Part shown: in pieces, positions 1,738-18,167 of the stretch
Position numbering within the stretch: the first letter of the stretch is position 1
Layout: each line of letters begins with the position of its first letter
IMG/VR virus record: IMGVR_UViG_2657245521_000006
Source: a virus
Taxonomy: Duplodnaviria > Heunggongvirae > Uroviricota > Caudoviricetes
Length of the DNA stretch: 18,167 bases
Reading direction: 5' to 3' (one strand)
The notes under the pieces: generated by a model
Told to the model about the DNA's origin: nothing
Seen by the model: only the letters and a program-made list of their open reading frames with translations
The model's database searches: none
Program-made: the position numbers and the translations under genes

Positions 1738-2007
1738 ATGGGGCTTGAAATGATTATCGGCCTGGTTGTTGCTGTGCTGGCTGCAATTGCAGGTGCTTTT
1801 GGGCTGGGCAAATCACGCGGTACCAGTATCGCTGAAACAAAAGCGGACCAACAACGCACTGAAGAACGTGCAATAGCTATTGAAGCGGTTGCAGAACGCC
1901 GGGTAGAAACAACAAAAGGAGCCAGGGATGTACAACAGACTGTTAACCATATGCCTGATGACGCTGCTGATCGCGAGCTGCGCAAAAACTGGACACGTAA
2001 GGATTGA
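1738..2007 (+). CDS. i-spanin (Rz-like inner-membrane spanin)
   Basis: ATG 1738 preceded by GAGG; N-terminal TM helix MIIGLVVAVLAAIAGAFGL then charged helical periplasmic region; o-spanin gene embedded at its 3' end. Confidence 0.7.
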   Translation: MGLEMIIGLVVAVLAAIAGAFGLGKSRGTSIAETKADQQRTEERAIAIEAVAERRVETTKGARDVQQTVNHMPDDAADRELRKNWTRKD

Positions 2008-2149
2008 GGTTATTGACACCGGCTGCGATTGGGTAAAACCCATCTACGGCACTGCTCATGATTGGGAAGTGCTGGACAGGCAGACCAAGAAAGACATTCT
2101 TATGCATAACAAAGTGTGGATGTCAAACTGTGGCTCTATAACTTATTGA
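1928..2149 (+). CDS. o-spanin (Rz1-like outer-membrane lipoprotein), overlapped architecture
   Basis: Starts inside the i-spanin in another frame with perfect SD AAGGAG 8 nt upstream; lipobox L-I-A-S-C (Cys18); extends past the i-spanin stop. Confidence 0.65.
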   Translation: MYNRLLTICLMTLLIASCAKTGHVRIEVIDTGCDWVKPIYGTAHDWEVLDRQTKKDILMHNKVWMSNCGSITY

Positions 2150-2799
2150 TTTTGTTTTTTGTTGTCTACCATATCAGGCAATGTGAAGGCATATAGAAGA
2201 AATACTTCGGTGAAACCAATCATTTCTTGAGCATCTTCTTTTGAAAATTCTTCATCAGAATGAACTGCTCCATTGGAATCGATTCGAACTATATGTGCCC
2301 ATTCCCTCATTTGATCTGTAATCAGTCCCTTAGCATGCAACATAGAAATCCGTTTAACCAATTTTTCATCTTTTGAGTCATTTCCCAGTAACTCCCGTGT
2401 AGCAATGTCCAAGACTTTACGGCAAAGCATAACGGATGTGTCGAAACGACAGCGCCCTAAGTTGTCTTTTGCTTCTATGAAAGCCATAGCAGCACGTGGC
2501 GGAGTGTGTTCGGGGGCGTTAAGGAGGGTGGGTTTCGGGATGATATCAATCAACTGGTACTCAGTATTTCCAGGAATGATTACGTTTACATCATTATTTT
2601 GCCTAGATTTTGCACGAGGTAAATAACCACCGGGATTATTCATTTTTACAATAGCAATACCTGATTGAAAACAGCTTCGACAACAAAATGCAATATTAAC
2701 TAAAGGCCCGGCGTTGATACGCAGTTCTGCCCATCCTTCAAGGACAGCATTTTCCCTCAGACAATGTGGGCAAGTGATATCGAAAGTGAGAATTCCCAT
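2143..2799 (-). CDS. Zinc-ribbon plus DUF4145-like helical domain protein (about 218 aa); candidate defence/abortive-infection-type cargo
   Basis: Minus ORF; start taken at ATG 2799-2797 with GGAG 7 nt upstream (MGILTFDITCPHC...); N-terminal CxxC...CCxxC; C-terminal ...HIVRIDSNGAVHSDEEFSKEDAQEMIGFTEVFLLYAF matches my memory of the DUF4145 signature; AT-rich codon usage unlike phage core genes. Confidence 0.7.
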   Translation of the reverse strand: MGILTFDITCPHCLRENAVLEGWAELRINAGPLVNIAFCCRSCFQSGIAIVKMNNPGGYLPRAKSRQNNDVNVIIPGNTEYQLIDIIPKPTLLNAPEHTPPRAAMAFIEAKDNLGRCRFDTSVMLCRKVLDIATRELLGNDSKDEKLVKRISMLHAKGLITDQMREWAHIVRIDSNGAVHSDEEFSKEDAQEMIGFTEVFLLYAFTLPDMVDNKKQNQ

Positions 2800-3479
2800 G
2801 ACTCTACTCCATACATTAAAAGAAATTGAAAATGAATTACACAATGCACAACGACCTGAGTCTACACTCCTTCAACGATATGAAGTATCGAATGAGATTA
2901 AAAAAAAGGAGTTTGTAGTCGCTTTGATCGGTAAACTGATAGAATTGGACCGCCGTCTCTATGTCACATCATTGAAGCCTTAGTTTCAATTTTACCGATT
3001 TATCGCTTAAGGGGTAGGACTTCAACACTACTAAGTGAGCATTGCAGCAGGCATTCAGGGGAATGCTGTGACAGTAGTTAGCTAGGGTAAACCGTTTGCG
3101 CCTGGGGATTTTACTTTGCGACGGAAAATTAAAAAACTATATGATTTCTTATCCCACTAGGATGTCTGCGGACTACTACTGACTGTTTAGGCTATTACGA
3201 GGGGCTCAAACTCAACGTCTGGCATCAACGCAGAACTGAAAAAGTCGCCATGAATGTGGTTACGGTATTTGGTGGGATATAAACGTACCTTCATTTCTAA
3301 GCTTGATAATCACCTTTGTCCGAATTGCCTACGCGATAGTCATGTAGTTTTAGTCATAACCGTTTACCCTATTGATGTCAAGATAAATTGGATAACACTG
3401 ATGAATCGAACCTCTAAATCCTTTGATGGGCCACTCATAGCTGACTGGTTCAAAAAAGTGTTATCAATGGTATGATAAG

Positions 3480-3509
3480 TTGAGATGAAAGGTGTAAATG
3501 AACTATAAT
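3480..3509 (+). promoter_or_regulatory. Candidate sigma70 promoter for the two-gene cargo operon (-35 TTGAGA, 18-nt spacer, -10 TATAAT)
   Basis: TTGAGA at 3480-3485 and TATAAT at 3504-3509, about 35 nt upstream of ATG 3545. Confidence 0.4.
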
Positions 3510-3544
3510 AATTCAACAGTTAATCTGAGAAAAATGGATTATGT

Positions 3545-3814
3545 ATGTCGAATGTAAAAAAAATAGATGCTATAGTTCAAAATTTATTTGAATTCAGAGA
3601 TGCTACAGGTGAACTTACGGATAAAAATATTGTTTTAATACAAAAAATCATAACGAACTTACCTGACTATGCTGGTAAGGATCCATATGAATTTTATTCA
3701 TCATTTTCTGAAGATATTAATGAGTCGCTCAAAGCAATTGCCAATTATCATAAGGCACATGCTAAATACATTAATGCCCTCGATAAATTAGCAGAGCTTA
3801 GGTCGGAGGGGTAA
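3545..3814 (+). CDS. Hypothetical small acidic helical protein (89 aa), first gene of the cargo operon
   Basis: ORF in very AT-rich DNA; followed 2 nt later by the coupled second gene; no family recognised. Confidence 0.6.
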   Translation: MSNVKKIDAIVQNLFEFRDATGELTDKNIVLIQKIITNLPDYAGKDPYEFYSSFSEDINESLKAIANYHKAHAKYINALDKLAELRSEG

Positions 3815-3816
3815 TA

Positions 3817-4194
3817 ATGGCTACGGAAGATATTCAGGCTTTGTTATCTAAAGTTAATGCGTTAAGATTTGAAGATAAAAGAATAGAGAAGGAAACAGGA
3901 GAGATTGAAAATGAAATTCAGGCTCAATTTCTTCGTGATGGTAAAACAAGGAGTACATTAACCATAACATTTATGAGAGGCTTTTTTGGTCTTATCGTTT
4001 TTTCTTTTATATTTGTGATAGTTTATAACTATTGCGCAGTGCAATGGGTACTTCAATTACAAAGCAAAGGGCTCATGGAGGCTTCTAAAAGTATCGCACT
4101 ACTTGAGTTAGATAAGGTGTTATCTATTATGGTTAGTGCGTTAGGAACATCTCTTGGGTTTATAATTGGCTATTATTTTAAAGACAAAAAATAA
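3817..4194 (+). CDS. Hypothetical membrane protein (125 aa; cytoplasmic coiled N-terminus plus two predicted TM helices), second gene of the cargo operon
   Basis: Strong SD GGAGGGG before ATG 3817; hydrophobic segments LTITFMRGFFGLIVFSFIFVIVY and VLSIMVSALGTSLGFIIGYYF; terminator downstream. Confidence 0.65.
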   Translation: MATEDIQALLSKVNALRFEDKRIEKETGEIENEIQAQFLRDGKTRSTLTITFMRGFFGLIVFSFIFVIVYNYCAVQWVLQLQSKGLMEASKSIALLELDKVLSIMVSALGTSLGFIIGYYFKDKK

Positions 4195-4269
4195 ATAATT
4201 TAATTTTACATTGCTATTTATGTTTTGCTTTTAAGATTTTTAACTTTCTAGATGTAGAGTTATTGTTAA

Positions 4270-4297
4270 AGCACTGGTATTTGCCAGTGCTTTTTTA
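4270..4297 (+). terminator. Rho-independent terminator closing the cargo operon
   Basis: Stem AGCACTGG / CCAGTGCT with loop TATTTG, followed by TTTTTT. Confidence 0.55.
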
Positions 4298-4695
4298 TTA
4301 AAATCCGCGGATTAATGACGGCAATCATGAATACTCCTCCAAAGACTGATCCAACGATACGGGTGTATAAGTCACACTTGTTTAATCTGTGATTGATGGC
4401 ACTATAATTTATGTTGCACAACATAAACTGCCGATGGAGGGAATTGAGTGCTGAGCATGTCAGACATAAGTGTGTTGTCGAAGGTCTCCTCAGGCATGGT
4501 TTCTGCATAACGTCGACACTTGAAAGCCTCCATAATGACAATAAAGTATAAGTATTATCATTATTAATTGTCACTTGCCGTTGCGACATGCTTGGGCGGC
4601 GACCGCCTAAGTTCTCTTTATAAATGAGAAGTTCCCGCTAGCGACCGTTTCTGATTCCTTTTTTTCTACTAAGTTTGTATCAAATAAACAGGATA

Positions 4696-5064
4696 ATGCC
4701 GATGCCAGCACGAGCAAAGCGTCCATGCCGGCACAAGGGCTGTGCGGCAGTTACCAACGATGCCAGTGGCTATTGTGATCAACACCGACAGCGGCATGCT
4801 GGTGATGGCTGGCGTAACTACCAGGCAGGAAAGAGCAGGCAGGAACGTGGATATGGGCGGACCTGGGAAATTAAACGGGTGCGTATCCTTCAGCGTGATA
4901 AGTACCTGTGTCAGAACCATCGCCGGCAGAAGATTGCAAAAAAGGCGACCAGCGTTGACCACATCATTCCAAAAGCTCATGGCGGTACTGATGACGATTT
5001 CAATCTTGAGTCGTTGTGCTGGGACTGCCACAGAGCGAAGACGGCAAGAGAGCGTATCCGATGA
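4696..5064 (+). CDS. HNH endonuclease, phage packaging-associated (HK97 gp74-like position)
   Basis: C-terminal HNH motif ...DHIIPKAHGGTDDDFNLESLCWDCHRAK; Cys/His-rich N-terminus; just upstream of terminase genes; start ambiguous between ATG 4696 and 4702 (SD AGGA at 4689-4692 favours 4702). Confidence 0.85.
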   Translation: MPMPARAKRPCRHKGCAAVTNDASGYCDQHRQRHAGDGWRNYQAGKSRQERGYGRTWEIKRVRILQRDKYLCQNHRRQKIAKKATSVDHIIPKAHGGTDDDFNLESLCWDCHRAKTARERIR

Positions 5065-5398
5065 GTTAGACCCATTGCACATATTTTGGTTCACGGCTCT
5101 ATACAATAGCTAACTGCCCAAAATAATGGGGTGGTTCATCGCGCCGCGCCAACCTGCACTGCAGCTATTGTGGGCAGTCAGGGCATAACTCTAGTGCCTG
5201 TCCACATAATGAGAGCTGCGGTCGTCGGCGCAGCCTGAATGATGACTTCCATCTTGATTGATGCCCACACAGGCCAGGGGAAGGGGGGATCAAATCCCTG
5301 ACCCCTTTCGCCTTCCAGGACTGCCGCCTGAAGGACATTTTTGCACGTCATAAATAAGGATCTTTTTTCCGGTAGGTTTCACCTATTAAAGAGGAGTT

Positions 5399-5833
5399 AT
5401 GGCTGGTGGAATTCGATCGTCTGGAGGGGGGAGAAAACCCATCTTACCCGCCGGACAAAAAAGTAAATTAACCCGAATTGCACCTCCTGCAGAGTTAATG
5501 GGGGAGGCTGCAATAAGACTGTGGAAAACCCAAAGTAAAATTCTGATCGAAAGAGGCGTGTTTGAACTGGAGGATGCGCCCCTGCTTGTGGCTTACTGCA
5601 ATGCCTTCCATTTAATGCTTGAAGCTGAAAAATTGCTCTCGTCAAGCCTGACGACCGAAAGTGAAATGGGGGGATTAAAGAAACATCCCGCCGTTAACAT
5701 CAGAAATGATTCAGTTTCCCAGATAGCCCGTCTTGGTTCGCTTCTGGGGTTGGATCCGCTCAGCCGAATTCGGATGCGTGGCGGTGGAAATGATCCTGAC
5801 GACGACGGGAATGAATTTGATGAGTTTGACTGA
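5399..5833 (+). CDS. Terminase small subunit (P27-family-like)
   Basis: 144 aa; SD AGAGGAG before ATG; 1-nt TGATG overlap with the large terminase; acidic C-terminal tail. Confidence 0.8.
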   Translation: MAGGIRSSGGGRKPILPAGQKSKLTRIAPPAELMGEAAIRLWKTQSKILIERGVFELEDAPLLVAYCNAFHLMLEAEKLLSSSLTTESEMGGLKKHPAVNIRNDSVSQIARLGSLLGLDPLSRIRMRGGGNDPDDDGNEFDEFD

Positions 5834-7554
5834 TGGCTACATATCCGAACGTCAATGCAGCGAACCAGTATGCAAGAGATGTTGTTGGCGGGAAGATCCT
5901 TGCTTGTCAGTTAACTGTGCTTGCCTGTCAAAGACACCTTGATGATTTGGAACGTGCGAAGGATCCTGCCTGGCCTTACCGGTTTGATAAAAACAAGGCC
6001 GAGCGATTTTTGCGCTTTGCTCAGAAGATGCCTCATACGGCCGGTGAATGGGCCAGGAAGAAACTACGAATAGAATTTGAGCCCTGGCAAAAGTTTGCCC
6101 TTGGTGTGCCATTTGGATGGGTTAATAAGAAGTCCGGATTCCGGCGTTTTTCTGAAATATATATTGAGGTGCCCAGGAAAAATGGGAAATCCGCAATTGC
6201 AGCTGCCGTTGGTAATTATATGTTTTGCGCCGATGGTGAACATGGTGCAGAAGTGTACTGTGGCGCCACTACTGAAAAACAAGCCTGGAAAGTCTTCTCT
6301 CCCGCTCTACAAATGGTAAAAAAACTCCCGGCATTGCGACAAAAATACTCAGTCAAACCCTGGGCGAAGAAAATGACCCGTCCGGATGGCTCTGTTTTTG
6401 CGCCAGTCATCGGCGATCCTGGTGACGGCGATTCCCCTTCATGTGCAATTATTGATGAATATCACGAGCATCAGACTGATGCACTTTATACAACGATGAC
6501 TACCGGGATGGGGGCAAGGGAGCAGCCTGTTACTCTGATTATTACTACAGCGGGTTATGACATTACTTCGCCCTGTTACGAGAAGCGTGTGCAGATAGTG
6601 GAAATTCTCCGCCGTAACCGGACAGGAGAAGAAAACGAGACAATATTTGGCATTATATACGGTCTGGATGACGATGATGACTGGACCAGGCCCGAAGCGC
6701 TGATTAAAGCAAATCCCAACTTTGGTGTTTCTGTTAAAGAGCATTTTCTTCGGGCGAAGCAGTTACTGGGAATATCCAATCCCAGCCAGACTAACAAAAT
6801 TCTGACCAAGCACTTTAACCGGTGGGTAAGTGCAAAAACGGTTTTTTATGACCTGCAAAGATGGATGGCTGCTGCGGATAAAAACCTTAAATTATCTGAT
6901 TTTGTTGATGAGGATTGCTGGCTGGGTATTGATCTGGCCTCGAAAGTAGACCTGAATGCCGTAGTGCCAGTGTTCAGGAGAGAGGTTGCTGGTATAACCC
7001 ATTTTTACTGTGTGGGGCCGCTGTTCTGGGCGCCTGAAGATACAATTTATTCACCAGATCCCACGCTGAAAACCATTTCTGAACGTTACCAGTCATTTGT
7101 GAAACAGGGGGTATTGATACCTACTGAAGGGGCTGAGGTGGATTATCGGTTAATTTTTGAGTCAATTCTTCAGTTACGCCAGCAGGTTAAAATTGTCCAG
7201 TGCCCGATAGATCCTTACGGGGCAACATCATTGCGCCATCTGCTTGAAGAGGAGGGGCTGGAATCCGTTGAGATCAGGCAAAATTTTACACATATGAGTG
7301 ATCCAATGCGTGAAATTGAGGCGGCGCTGGCATCAGGACGCTTTCATCATGACGGTAACCCTATCATGAACTGGTGCATCCAGAATGTTATAGGGCGTTA
7401 CTTACCAGGAAGCGATGACATTGTTCGCCCAGGGAAGGAGAGAAAGCAAAACAAAATAGATGGCGCGGTAGGACTAATGATGGGAGTCGGGCGAGCCATG
7501 CTGAACGGAACTGTCAGTAAATCGGCTTATGATGAGGAAGATATTACATGTTGA
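5833..7554 (+). CDS. Terminase large subunit (ATPase/nuclease)
   Basis: 573 aa; P-loop-like VPRKNGKSAIAAAVGNYMF then acidic segment CAIIDEYHEH; typical length and position. Confidence 0.93.
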   Translation: MATYPNVNAANQYARDVVGGKILACQLTVLACQRHLDDLERAKDPAWPYRFDKNKAERFLRFAQKMPHTAGEWARKKLRIEFEPWQKFALGVPFGWVNKKSGFRRFSEIYIEVPRKNGKSAIAAAVGNYMFCADGEHGAEVYCGATTEKQAWKVFSPALQMVKKLPALRQKYSVKPWAKKMTRPDGSVFAPVIGDPGDGDSPSCAIIDEYHEHQTDALYTTMTTGMGAREQPVTLIITTAGYDITSPCYEKRVQIVEILRRNRTGEENETIFGIIYGLDDDDDWTRPEALIKANPNFGVSVKEHFLRAKQLLGISNPSQTNKILTKHFNRWVSAKTVFYDLQRWMAAADKNLKLSDFVDEDCWLGIDLASKVDLNAVVPVFRREVAGITHFYCVGPLFWAPEDTIYSPDPTLKTISERYQSFVKQGVLIPTEGAEVDYRLIFESILQLRQQVKIVQCPIDPYGATSLRHLLEEEGLESVEIRQNFTHMSDPMREIEAALASGRFHHDGNPIMNWCIQNVIGRYLPGSDDIVRPGKERKQNKIDGAVGLMMGVGRAMLNGTVSKSAYDEEDITC

Positions 7555-7727
7555 TCACTCTTTTAAGTTTTATTATCGGCCTCACCGGAGCCGGGTTAGT
7601 GTCTGCCGGTGCCTGGCTTATTTCACCTGCAGCCGGGCTTATTACTGGCGGTTCAATCTGCCTGCTGTGGTCATTTTTAATCGCGAAATCGATGTCCGCC
7701 AGCGTAATTAAATCAGGGGGTGAATAA
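7548..7727 (+). CDS. Small two-TM membrane protein (59 aa), translationally coupled between terminase and portal; not in the supplied ORF track
   Basis: Hand translation MLITLLSFIIGLTGAGLVSAGAWLISPAAGLITGGSICLLWSFLIAKSMSASVIKSGGE; ATG 7548 overlaps the terminase stop and its TAA overlaps portal ATG 7727 (TAATG). Confidence 0.4.
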   Translation: MLITLLSFIIGLTGAGLVSAGAWLISPAAGLITGGSICLLWSFLIAKSMSASVIKSGGE

Positions 7728-8986
7728 TGTTCATTCCCCAGATGTTTCGGGGTAAATCTCAGTCTGGTGGTGGTTTCTGGCAGGCGATGCTGGGTGGGGT
7801 GAGTTCCAGCCAGAGCAAGGCGGGGATCATTATCACTCCTGAAACCGCACTGGCGTTATCGGCGGTCCGGGCATGCGTAACGCTTCTGGCAGAATCGGTG
7901 GCGCAGTTGCCGTGTGAACTTTACAGGCGAGGCGCTAACGGAGGCCGTGAACGGGCGACTGACCACCCTGTTTATGATCTGATTCATTCCCAGCCCAACA
8001 AAAAAGACACCTCGTTTGAATACTTTGAGCAGCAACAGGGCCTGCTCGGGCTGGAGGGAAATTGCTACTCGATCATCGACAGGGACGGGAAAGGGTATCC
8101 CCGCGAATTAATCCCGGTTAATCCCAAAAAAGTCATCGTCCTGAAAGGGCCTGACGGGATGCCCTATTATGAACTCCCCGAAATTGGCGAAACGTTGCCA
8201 ATGCGCATGATGCATCATGTGAAGGTTTTCTCGCTGGATGGTTATATCGGTAGCTCTCCGATCCAGACGAACGCAGACGTTCTTGGGCTGAACCTGGCCG
8301 TTGAAGAGCATGCTTCTCAGGTTTTTCGCCGTGGCACAACGATGAGCGGCGTTATTGAGCGACCAAAGGAGGCTCCGACAATAAAGAACCAGGAGAAGAT
8401 TGACCAACTTCTTGCTAAATGGACGGATCGTTATTCCGGTATGCGTAATGCCTTTTCTGTCGCATTGCTTCAGGAAGGGATGAGCTACAAACAGCTATCT
8501 CAGGATAATGAGAAAGCGCAGCTGTTGCAGTCCCGCCAGTGGGGCGTGGAGGAAGTTTGCCGACTCTATAAAATCCCGCCTCATATGGTGCAGATGCTGG
8601 CGAAAGCCACAAATAACAACATTGAGCATCAGGGGCTGCAGTTCGTCATGTATACGCTTTTAGCCTGGCTGAAGCGTCATGAAGGCGCATTAATGCGCGA
8701 TCTGCTTTTACCCAGCGAGCGCGGTAGTCTGTACATTGAATTCAATGTATCCGGCCTGCTGCGCGGGGATCAGAAGTCACGCTATGAATCTTATGCGCTG
8801 GGCCGTCAGTGGGGCTGGTTATCGGTTAATGACATTCGCCGCATGGAGAACCTTCCTCCCATCGCCGGAGGGGACAAATACCTGACGCCTCTGAATATGG
8901 TCGACAGTAAACAAATCTTACCTGGCAATAACGCGCCAACAGCTAAACAACTGGCAGAAATCGAAACTATTCTGGCCAGAGCCTGA
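7727..8986 (+). CDS. Portal protein (HK97-family-like)
   Basis: 419 aa directly after terminase; sequence character of HK97-type portals (from memory). Confidence 0.9.
   Translation: MFIPQMFRGKSQSGGGFWQAMLGGVSSSQSKAGIIITPETALALSAVRACVTLLAESVAQLPCELYRRGANGGRERATDHPVYDLIHSQPNKKDTSFEYFEQQQGLLGLEGNCYSIIDRDGKGYPRELIPVNPKKVIVLKGPDGMPYYELPEIGETLPMRMMHHVKVFSLDGYIGSSPIQTNADVLGLNLAVEEHASQVFRRGTTMSGVIERPKEAPTIKNQEKIDQLLAKWTDRYSGMRNAFSVALLQEGMSYKQLSQDNEKAQLLQSRQWGVEEVCRLYKIPPHMVQMLAKATNNNIEHQGLQFVMYTLLAWLKRHEGALMRDLLLPSERGSLYIEFNVSGLLRGDQKSRYESYALGRQWGWLSVNDIRRMENLPPIAGGDKYLTPLNMVDSKQILPGNNAPTAKQLAEIETILARA

Positions 8987-17785: not shown

Positions 17786-18167
<382 letters not shown>

Follow-up and report, generated by a model that had tools for sequence, protein, structure and literature searches.

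How can a phage that builds its own portal carry a RAZR-type sensor, a kind of protein described in 2026 as responding to portal and recombinase rings? This directly testable question is raised by an AT-rich interval in an 18,167-nucleotide (nt) stretch of Caudoviricetes DNA (IMG/VR record IMGVR_UViG_2657245521_000006; hereafter the window, meaning the whole stretch analysed), which represents the late-gene part of a lambdoid prophage whose packaging genes are of the HK97 type, as judged from its open reading frames (ORFs), Pfam matches and the gene calls in identical loci. The interval extends from the end of the o-spanin gene to an intact HNH endonuclease gene and contains four genes and one pseudogene. 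An initial annotation, made from the sequence alone, had treated positions 2143-4670 as a single three-gene candidate defence or exclusion locus, none of whose products matched a named defence system. The evidence presented here tips us, with little more than even confidence, towards a different view, namely that this is a composite accessory (‘moron') island at the lysis/packaging junction of an Escherichia coli/Citrobacter lambdoid prophage, the island being made up of two stacked mobile two-gene cassettes and a dead HNH gene that separates them. Module A would be a RAZR-like RNase cassette and module B a membrane exclusion or abortive-infection unit. The single-locus model was not supported, as the two cassettes are independent and each is found separately elsewhere. 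With respect to the opening question, the locus provides a concrete candidate answer in the form of a conserved, previously unannotated partner gene that has a fixed head-to-head overlap with the putative RNase gene. The RAZR-like gene falls within a defence family that already bears a name; what is new is the conserved partner and antisense architecture of its clade, together with the membrane protein pair.

The DUF4145 protein groups by profile with the RAZR superfamily

The first gene of module A lies on the minus strand (2143-2799) and encodes a 218-amino-acid (aa) protein whose N-terminal Cys4 zinc ribbon is joined by a variable linker to a C-terminal DUF4145/HEPN domain containing the motif R172-x7-H180. 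Translation most likely starts at the ATG at 2799, which is preceded by GGAG 10 nt upstream, and not at the less favoured TTG at 2844. The C-terminal half of the protein matches Pfam DUF4145 (8e-11) and the whole protein matches phrog_1305 (7e-43). Among 43 homologues (44-98% identity) Cys10, Cys13, Cys40 and Cys43 are invariant, as are Arg172, Asp174, Asn176 and His180; the four cysteines are at least 90% conserved in 98 representatives of the wider family, and Arg172 and His180 are invariant or nearly so across both sets. The ribbon gave profile matches to RPB9/TFIIS-type ribbons (E = 0.05-0.13), including 1QYP, the structure superposed in the RAZR paper (PMC13017515), and the AlphaFold2 (AF2) model contains N-terminal β strands at residues 4-6, 20-27, 33-40 and 46-53.

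RAZR (ring-activated zinc-finger RNase, or PD-T7-4) is a single-gene abortive-infection defence known from E. coli and Klebsiella variicola (Vassallo 2022, PMC9519451; Zhang 2026, PMC13017515; PDB 9Y9C), in which a linker connects a Cys4 zinc ribbon to a DUF4145/HEPN domain whose catalytic residues are Arg146 and His154 (PMC13017515). Triggered by the ring proteins portal and Gp77, RAZR polymerizes into a 24-mer that surrounds phage portal or recombinase rings, after which it cleaves single-stranded RNA non-specifically and aborts the infection; specificity is determined by the zinc-finger domain, the part of the protein that varies most (PMC13017515). The three hallmarks of this system, an N-terminal Cys4 ribbon, a C-terminal DUF4145 domain with a HEPN fold and the catalytic Arg/His pair (here the invariant Arg172 and His180), are all present in the window protein. 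The two proteins also agree in length (218 and 219 aa), in the order of their parts, with a ribbon of the RPB9/TFIIS type, in the residue-by-residue alignment of the catalytic R-x3-N-x3-H motif, and in having a sensor half that varies more than the RNase half; in the window family pairs of proteins have mean identities of 0.48 over residues 1-55, 0.30 over 56-98 and 0.70 over 99-210.

The relationship is not evident from direct comparison. Interrogation of the PDB sequences by phmmer with the DUF4145 protein and two relatives did not retrieve RAZR (9Y9C), and the RAZR chain was not recovered in either fold search, Foldseek against the PDB returning only a weak HEPN match; the HEPN toxins 5yep and 7ae2 were among the best structural matches. 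A first family profile scored 9Y9C at E = 1.1 and 0.84, and the PADLOC model for PD-T7-4 matched the window protein at E = 0.0023. The same model, however, matches 19 of the 43 close homologues and 47 of the 98 wider family members, the best at 3.4e-11. An exhaustive HMMER search of 1.84 billion representatives identified 2,816 family members that matched along their full length (200-230 aa), and for the second-iteration profile, built from 98 of these, the best PDB sequence was 9y9c_OA (E = 6.3e-7). The alignment covers both domains, placing ribbon on ribbon and the RAZR segment ‘RIVGNQAVH' on ‘RIDSNGAVH', the Arg172-His180 motif (family consensus ‘iRldgNeaaH'). As the direct match is weak but the 98-member profile reaches RAZR at a significant score and the PD-T7-4 model matches part of the family, profile comparison places the DUF4145 protein in the RAZR/PD-T7-4 superfamily as a divergent member of a separate clade, and the statement that no island protein belongs to a named defence system does not hold for this gene. 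By analogy with RAZR the protein is predicted to be an RNase that aborts infection.

There are also clear differences between the two systems. The direct sequence match is not significant; the window clade has a conserved small partner gene that overlaps the start of the RNase gene, an arrangement not described for RAZR; and the cassette is embedded in antisense orientation in prophage lytic operons, while for PD-T7-4 homologues an overlap with an integrase gene is reported to be frequent. A further prophage system, HepS of Salmonella Gifsy-1 (PMC13043305; PDB 9OIK), differs from the window protein in lacking a zinc-ribbon domain. HepS is triggered by the tail-tip protein J, cleaves tRNA, and avoids autoimmunity through a non-triggering variant of its trigger and not through a partner gene (PMC13043305). 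The DefensePredictor system DS-38 was rejected as a relative on architecture. We took it to be ‘HEP2' (WP_001313577.1) from the common description of a HEPN domain with a zinc finger, an identity that the source tables do not state; HEP2 spans residues 1-366 with a C-terminal zinc finger (206-364), whereas the window protein is 218 aa long and has an N-terminal ribbon.

A conserved small gene overlaps the start of the RAZR-like gene

On the plus strand, and thus co-directional with the late operon, lies orf62 (2798-2983), a 61-aa gene of the family phrog_8371, which is omitted by the NCBI gene calls in carrier genomes. Its ATG and that of the RAZR-like gene on the opposite strand overlap head to head as CATG, with two bases in common. 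At its other end the RAZR-like gene overlaps the 3' end of the o-spanin gene tail to tail by 7 nt. The CATG overlap with an open small ORF is kept in 55 of 80 viral contigs that encode family members, yielding 33 distinct small proteins that have in common the motif RPEFTL-QRYE...QK...ALIGKLIE-DR. Variation is concentrated at third codon positions (0.55 versus 0.39 and 0.32), the median pairwise ratio of nonsynonymous to synonymous substitution rates (dN/dS) is 0.29, and 14 of the 15 members of phrog_8371 were matched (best 6.8e-56). No match to orf62 was found in Pfam or the PDB. A HEPN-MNT pairing was not evident, the sole conserved neighbour of the HEPN gene being orf62, whose 61-aa product carries no MNT or DNA-binding signature. 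A KwaB match to a long form of orf62 (E = 0.027) was dismissed as chance. At the nucleotide level the window resembles two other loci (L087 and L088) across the lysis genes and as far as the orf62 stop codon, where the similarity ends, and we therefore take this stop to be the edge of the cassette.

The orientation of the cassette is also conserved. In 49 of the 52 distinct loci in which both flanks are available, the putative RNase gene is the lone gene antisense to both flanks, while orf62 reads with its neighbours. In Shiga toxin (Stx)-converting phages of Shigella and E. coli the cassette (gp19/gp20 in phage 75/02 Stx) is sited with replication genes on one side and nin genes on the other. 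The arrangement of module A, and its orientation to lytic transcription, is the same in dozens of phages and at both of these prophage hotspots. Directly adjoining the RAZR-like/orf62 cassette in the Stx phages are genes for a RelE/ParE toxin and for a transcriptional regulator (4141-4702 of locus L168, Shigella phage 75/02 Stx), with which it forms a small accessory cluster between replication and nin genes. In the most distant RAZR-like clade (45-47% identity; viral contigs L145-L163) the RNase gene lies 33 nt from a divergently oriented gene resembling that of a terminase small subunit.

Any prophage with a gene for a sensor of phage-built assemblies needs a way to avoid harming itself, and the fixed overlap and orientation of module A fit a solution resembling that of Tha and Ith. 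Tha, a HEPN RNase of Staphylococcus aureus prophages, senses phage structural proteins and has a small inhibitor gene, ith, antisense to it; collisions between polymerases, together with synthesis of the inhibitor, make its activity track the phage life cycle (Rostol 2024, PMC11087260). Tha provides our model for RAZR-like/orf62, the likeness being one of arrangement with no sequence relationship expected; Tha, however, lacks a zinc ribbon, and tha and ith reside in the lysogeny/cI region and not in late or early lytic operons. Following the RAZR precedent, the RAZR-like RNase would be made in the lysogen, would assemble on a protein of a superinfecting phage via its variable zinc-ribbon part, and would then cleave RNA, aborting the infection. 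When the prophage itself turns lytic, read-through transcription would suppress the antisense RNase gene and express orf62, the product of which may restrain the RNase so that the phage's own proteins do not trigger it. We infer from this arrangement that orf62 could be a Tha/Ith-like self-immunity factor; it should be emphasized that an antitoxin-like or purely regulatory role for orf62 is equally open.

A low G+C cassette encodes a membrane protein pair

Module B consists of two co-directional genes on the plus strand, separated by a stop codon, 2 nt and an ATG and thus arranged for translational coupling. The upstream gene (3545-3814) encodes p89, an acidic (isoelectric point 5.3), probably all-helical soluble protein related to phrog_21707 (5e-8). 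The downstream gene (3817-4194) encodes p125 (phrog_20796, 4.5e-49), which has a variable N-terminal cytoplasmic helix followed by two transmembrane (TM) helices and an invariant GTSLGFIIGYYFK segment. Hydropathy peaks at residues ~49-75 and 93-120, and the AF2 model contains helices at 3-83 and 98-122, such that a long N-terminal helix continues into TM1 and a short loop leads on to TM2. The promoter and terminator that the initial annotation had assigned to the pair exist as consensus matches: a σ70-like candidate, TTGAGA-18-TATAAT, matches 11 of 12 consensus positions at 3480-3509 (plus strand), although such sites are no commoner than in shuffled sequence (11 found and 9.3 expected in the region scanned), and an intrinsic-terminator-like hairpin with a T-run closes the unit at 4268-4293 (plus strand). 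Of 23 distinct loci, 14 have a G+C-rich hairpin and T-run after the pair.

The pair is widespread. Homologues of p125 fall into at least 132 clusters across the Enterobacterales, and in nearly every locus examined the TM gene is abutted or overlapped by a gene for an acidic p89 homologue of 90-106 aa. The p89 family was collected by this synteny and not by sequence search; a word-index search with p89 retrieved only p89 itself. Mean pairwise identity is 0.27 for p89 and 0.23 for the first 40 residues of p125, as against 0.61 for the membrane part of p125; a mirror-tree test of p89 against the p125 N terminus gave no specific co-evolution signal. The pair mostly resides between the spanins and HNH or the terminase small subunit gene (terS), without module A, in E. 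coli, Klebsiella, Raoultella and Pantoea prophages that have unrelated lysis genes of differing holin and endolysin types (for example Klebsiella phage P7641), while in Proteus mirabilis it lies among tail genes, beside a cI-like repressor and far from any lysis gene. Its G+C content is 0.32-0.39 regardless of that of its surroundings (0.37-0.55). The pair thus moves as a unit between prophage hotspots. In one E. coli prophage that carries the pair (locus L164), genes for a ThsB-like TIR protein and a caspase-like Peptidase_C14 protein occupy positions 1160-2537, between the Q antiterminator and the holin.

The claim that the pair matches no described system was upheld in PADLOC, Pfam, NCBIfam and the PDB; PADLOC 2.0 gave no match to p89 or p125 at E ≤ 0.1, the p125 AF2 model had no match in BFVD, and no holin family of Pfam or PHROGs matches p125. 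In its promoter-like site, terminator, deviant G+C and patchy presence among relatives module B resembles the lambdoid morons: the G+C content is 0.32 against 0.53, the pair is absent from close relatives defined by the terminase large subunit (TerL), and the transcription signals are consensus matches only. The combination of a soluble protein with a small inner-membrane protein recalls RexAB of lambda. Bor has a lipobox and a signal peptide, which are lacking in module B, and p125 is set apart from both Bor and RexAB by its two TM helices, its length of 125 aa and the lack of detectable similarity to named families (Pfam, PADLOC, NCBIfam and BFVD). It is plausible that module B is a membrane exclusion or abortive-infection unit, a role that we prefer to a late phage function. 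In such a unit p89 and the variable cytoplasmic part of p125 may sense or regulate, while the conserved two-TM hairpin of p125 would be the part that, at the inner membrane, excludes competing phages or aborts their infection. The island thereby flags two widespread prophage families of the Enterobacterales with no assigned function, phrog_20796 and phrog_21707, which together display hallmarks of an immune module in being AT-rich and mobile and in pairing a variable soluble part with a conserved membrane part.

The island occupies a cargo hotspot and retains a recombination scar

The sharp fall in G+C that had drawn attention to this interval is real, at 0.374 for 2143-4670 compared with a mean of 0.532 (standard deviation 0.036, minimum 0.432) for 650-nt windows outside the island. 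The fall is graded, with values of 0.41 for the DUF4145 gene, 0.37 for orf62, 0.39 for the spacer 2984-3544, 0.32 for p89/p125 and 0.375 for 4195-4701. As the drop is uneven, the earlier estimate of 30-35% G+C fits the p89/p125 pair only and not the remaining parts (0.37-0.41). Similarly, G+C at third codon positions is 0.24-0.26 in the pair and 0.52-0.58 in the lysis and head genes.

The boundaries proposed for the island were correct. On the left the o-spanin gene (1928-2149, plus strand) is defined by the ORF list, the gene calls in identical loci and tblastn synteny, and on the right the packaging module begins with the intact HNH endonuclease gene (4702-5064, plus strand; Pfam HNH 8.7e-13, and synteny), followed by the genes for the terminase small subunit (TerS; 5399-5833) and TerL (5833-7554) and by portal (7727-8986), protease, capsid and tail genes. 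Upstream of the island are two holin-family genes (462-1116; Phage_holin_8 and Phage_holin_3_7), a GH19 endolysin gene (1116-1730) and nested spanin genes (1738-2149). The inventory between these boundaries needed revision: the three ORFs recognized initially do exist, while orf62 and the HNH pseudogene had been missed. Thus 2845-3544, described as noncoding, holds part of orf62 and the pseudogene, and the second such stretch, 4195-4701, indeed lacks a recognizable gene and has only two terminator-like sites.

That this is accessory cargo at a variable hotspot is borne out by related prophages, which were identified by a TerL scan with one genome per species. Where TerL, TerS and HNH are 70-95% identical to those of the window, none of the prophages has any island gene (tblastn), and they hold other genes between the spanins and HNH. 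Conversely, one locus (L007) has a 100% identical island adjoining a TerL that is only 54% identical. Comparison of the spanin-to-HNH interval therefore bears out the expected swapping of cargo, one relative having matches to defence models. This is Klebsiella pneumoniae ATCC 13883 (L020, 6257-7901), in which the interval contains a convergent gene pair with matches to the PADLOC models ‘cll' (3e-32), ‘beta' and PD-Lambda-2_C and to Pfam Beta_protein; another Klebsiella has an aspartyl-protease-like gene there. Lambda carries bor, a classical lambdoid moron, at the spanin/packaging position. The Tai defence genes of phages are also found mostly just upstream of the packaging module (PMC11364771). 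Their likeness to the island is one of hotspot location only, as Tai is not described as a membrane protein or a two-gene cassette (PMC11364771).

Exact copies of the island proteins are on record from E. coli, Citrobacter braakii and Citrobacter koseri. Megablast of 1900-5100 gave no match among 50,697 phage records and short flank matches only among 5,426 complete E. coli genomes, which makes the island a rarity in these reference collections. No Rfam match at gathering thresholds and no tRNA was found inside it.

How the cassettes came to be stacked is indicated by the sequence between them. Positions ~3148-3400 (plus strand) contain a decayed HNH endonuclease pseudogene with two frameshifts. 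HNH endonucleases encoded at seven independent loci align to it colinearly over their residues 4-92, in pieces that occupy frames 3, 2 and 1 in succession (tblastn, tblastx). An older junction in which module A was followed by HNH was therefore displaced by a segment bearing module B and the present HNH gene, and the relic marks the recombination joint between the two modules. The spanin-to-HNH/terminase junction is in this way documented as a site of cassette stacking, with a pseudogene scar that shows how stacking occurs. Downstream of module B is a lineage-specific spacer (4294-4701) that has no recognizable gene by tblastx, blastn or scanning; tblastx of 4195-4701 likewise revealed no relic gene. 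A second terminator-like site lies at 4590-4612, and sequence in common with a Citrobacter werkmanii relative resumes at 4597 (blastn). A minus-strand promoter-like site (4545-4574; 10 of 12 positions) is located within a 107-aa minus-strand ORF (4266-4589) that has no homologues; if active, it would direct antisense transcription towards p125.

Alternative explanations for the two modules

Small proteins in tight, conserved pairing with an RNase invite another explanation of module A, that it is a toxin-antitoxin-like addiction or regulatory cassette, in which orf62 is a constitutive antitoxin or a transcriptional regulator of the HEPN RNase that stabilizes the prophage or tunes the level of the enzyme, and does not shut it off when the phage itself grows lytically. 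HEPN RNases are common as toxins of toxin-antitoxin pairs, and the toxins 5yep and 7ae2 are, as noted above, among the best structural matches. We nevertheless consider this explanation unlikely. The divergent, start-overlapping arrangement is unlike the co-directional operons typical of type II pairs, the orf62 product has neither an MNT nor a DNA-binding signature, and a pure toxin-antitoxin model does not predict that the orientation of the cassette to lytic transcription should be kept at two hotspots. In addition, RAZR and its Klebsiella homologue are non-toxic alone and are triggered by phage proteins (PMC13017515). It could also be argued that the DUF4145 protein is no anti-phage RNase but has a function in the phage's own interest, such as regulation through nucleic-acid binding, given that it is present in many functional temperate phages and that phrog_1305 and the RefSeq records of Stx phages label it ‘DNA binding protein'. 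That label, however, is an annotation and not a test, the fold is HEPN, the catalytic Arg and His are invariant or nearly so in the 43 and 98 homologues, and the characterized relative is a defence RNase (PMC13017515); a role of this kind appears quite improbable. Least credible of all is that the whole island is decaying, functionless DNA of horizontal origin, even though it includes an HNH pseudogene and ~400 nt of unassignable spacer and several carrier prophages are themselves degraded (L005, L006 and L008). Many independent assemblies, those of degraded prophages included, contain all four ORFs in intact form and with 98-100% identity, orf62 is under purifying selection, and the p125 membrane segment averages 61% identity across genera.

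The serious rival concerns module B, which may encode a late function that benefits the phage, for instance by pairing a holin-like or antiholin membrane protein with a regulator, or by keeping progeny from re-adsorbing to, or superinfecting, lysing cells, in either case with expression from the late operon. The outline of p125, a small protein with two TM helices and a basic C-terminal tail, is compatible with a holin; the location of the pair between spanins and HNH/terS, in late-gene orientation and alongside differing holin and endolysin types, fits such a function, and a promoter-like site does not precede the pair in every locus. The phage, however, already has two holin-family genes, and p125 matches no holin family; the Proteus pair resides in the tail region, beside a cI-like repressor and remote from lysis genes; and close TerL relatives manage without the pair. 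Furthermore, the terminator directly after the pair and a G+C content 15-20 points below that of the host phage argue against late-operon expression. Such a terminator and low G+C are typical of independently transcribed morons. We therefore regard the late function as a possibility to be taken seriously but, on this evidence, a doubtful one.

Several observations weigh against the composite defence island that we favour. With respect to module A, the direct sequence link to RAZR is weak (E ~1 for 9Y9C and 0.002 for PADLOC) and becomes significant only via the intermediate profile; RAZR works as a single gene, so that the family does not require a partner; orf62 is absent from the most distant RAZR-like clade (contigs L145-L163); and a search of 36 distinct loci for a consensus promoter within 250 nt of either module A gene found none. 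For module B, p89 and p125 have no family match in PADLOC, Pfam, NCBIfam or the PDB, the promoter-like site ~55-65 nt upstream of the pair is seen in some loci only, and the recurrence of the pair at the same place and in late-gene orientation, in many phages with unrelated lysis genes, also fits a phage-beneficial late function. A bolder generalization would hold both that orf62 is the cognate brake of RAZR-type RNases, fixed in place by the overlapping start codons and the antisense embedding, made only during the phage's own lytic transcription and representing a general solution to self-sparing for prophages with a sensor of phage ring or structural proteins, and that p89/p125 is a new two-component membrane exclusion or abortive system with a fast-evolving cytoplasmic sensor and a conserved two-TM effector; we put this forward tentatively, judging that it probably claims too much.

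Other features of the window

Three further regions of the window are of note. The 330-nt gap between HNH and terS (5065-5398) is conserved with the C. werkmanii relative (94% over 5277-5400) and is likely to be the cos region of the HK97-type packaging module. Upstream of the holin genes, positions 1-450 form a second AT-rich stretch (G+C 0.32 at 151-450); in loci identical to this region the holins are separated from the Q antiterminator region by a minus-strand gene of 220-239 aa without a Pfam match (L001, 5876-6595), and the stretch is thus a further cargo site, cut by the edge of the window. Finally, positions 17925-18047 (plus strand) give a full-length Rfam match (150 bits, E = 4e-37) to isrC, a Salmonella Hfq-binding small RNA, directly after the tape-measure gene and a gene for a 114-aa minor-tail-like protein, which suggests that isrC-type small RNAs are carried in lambdoid tail regions.

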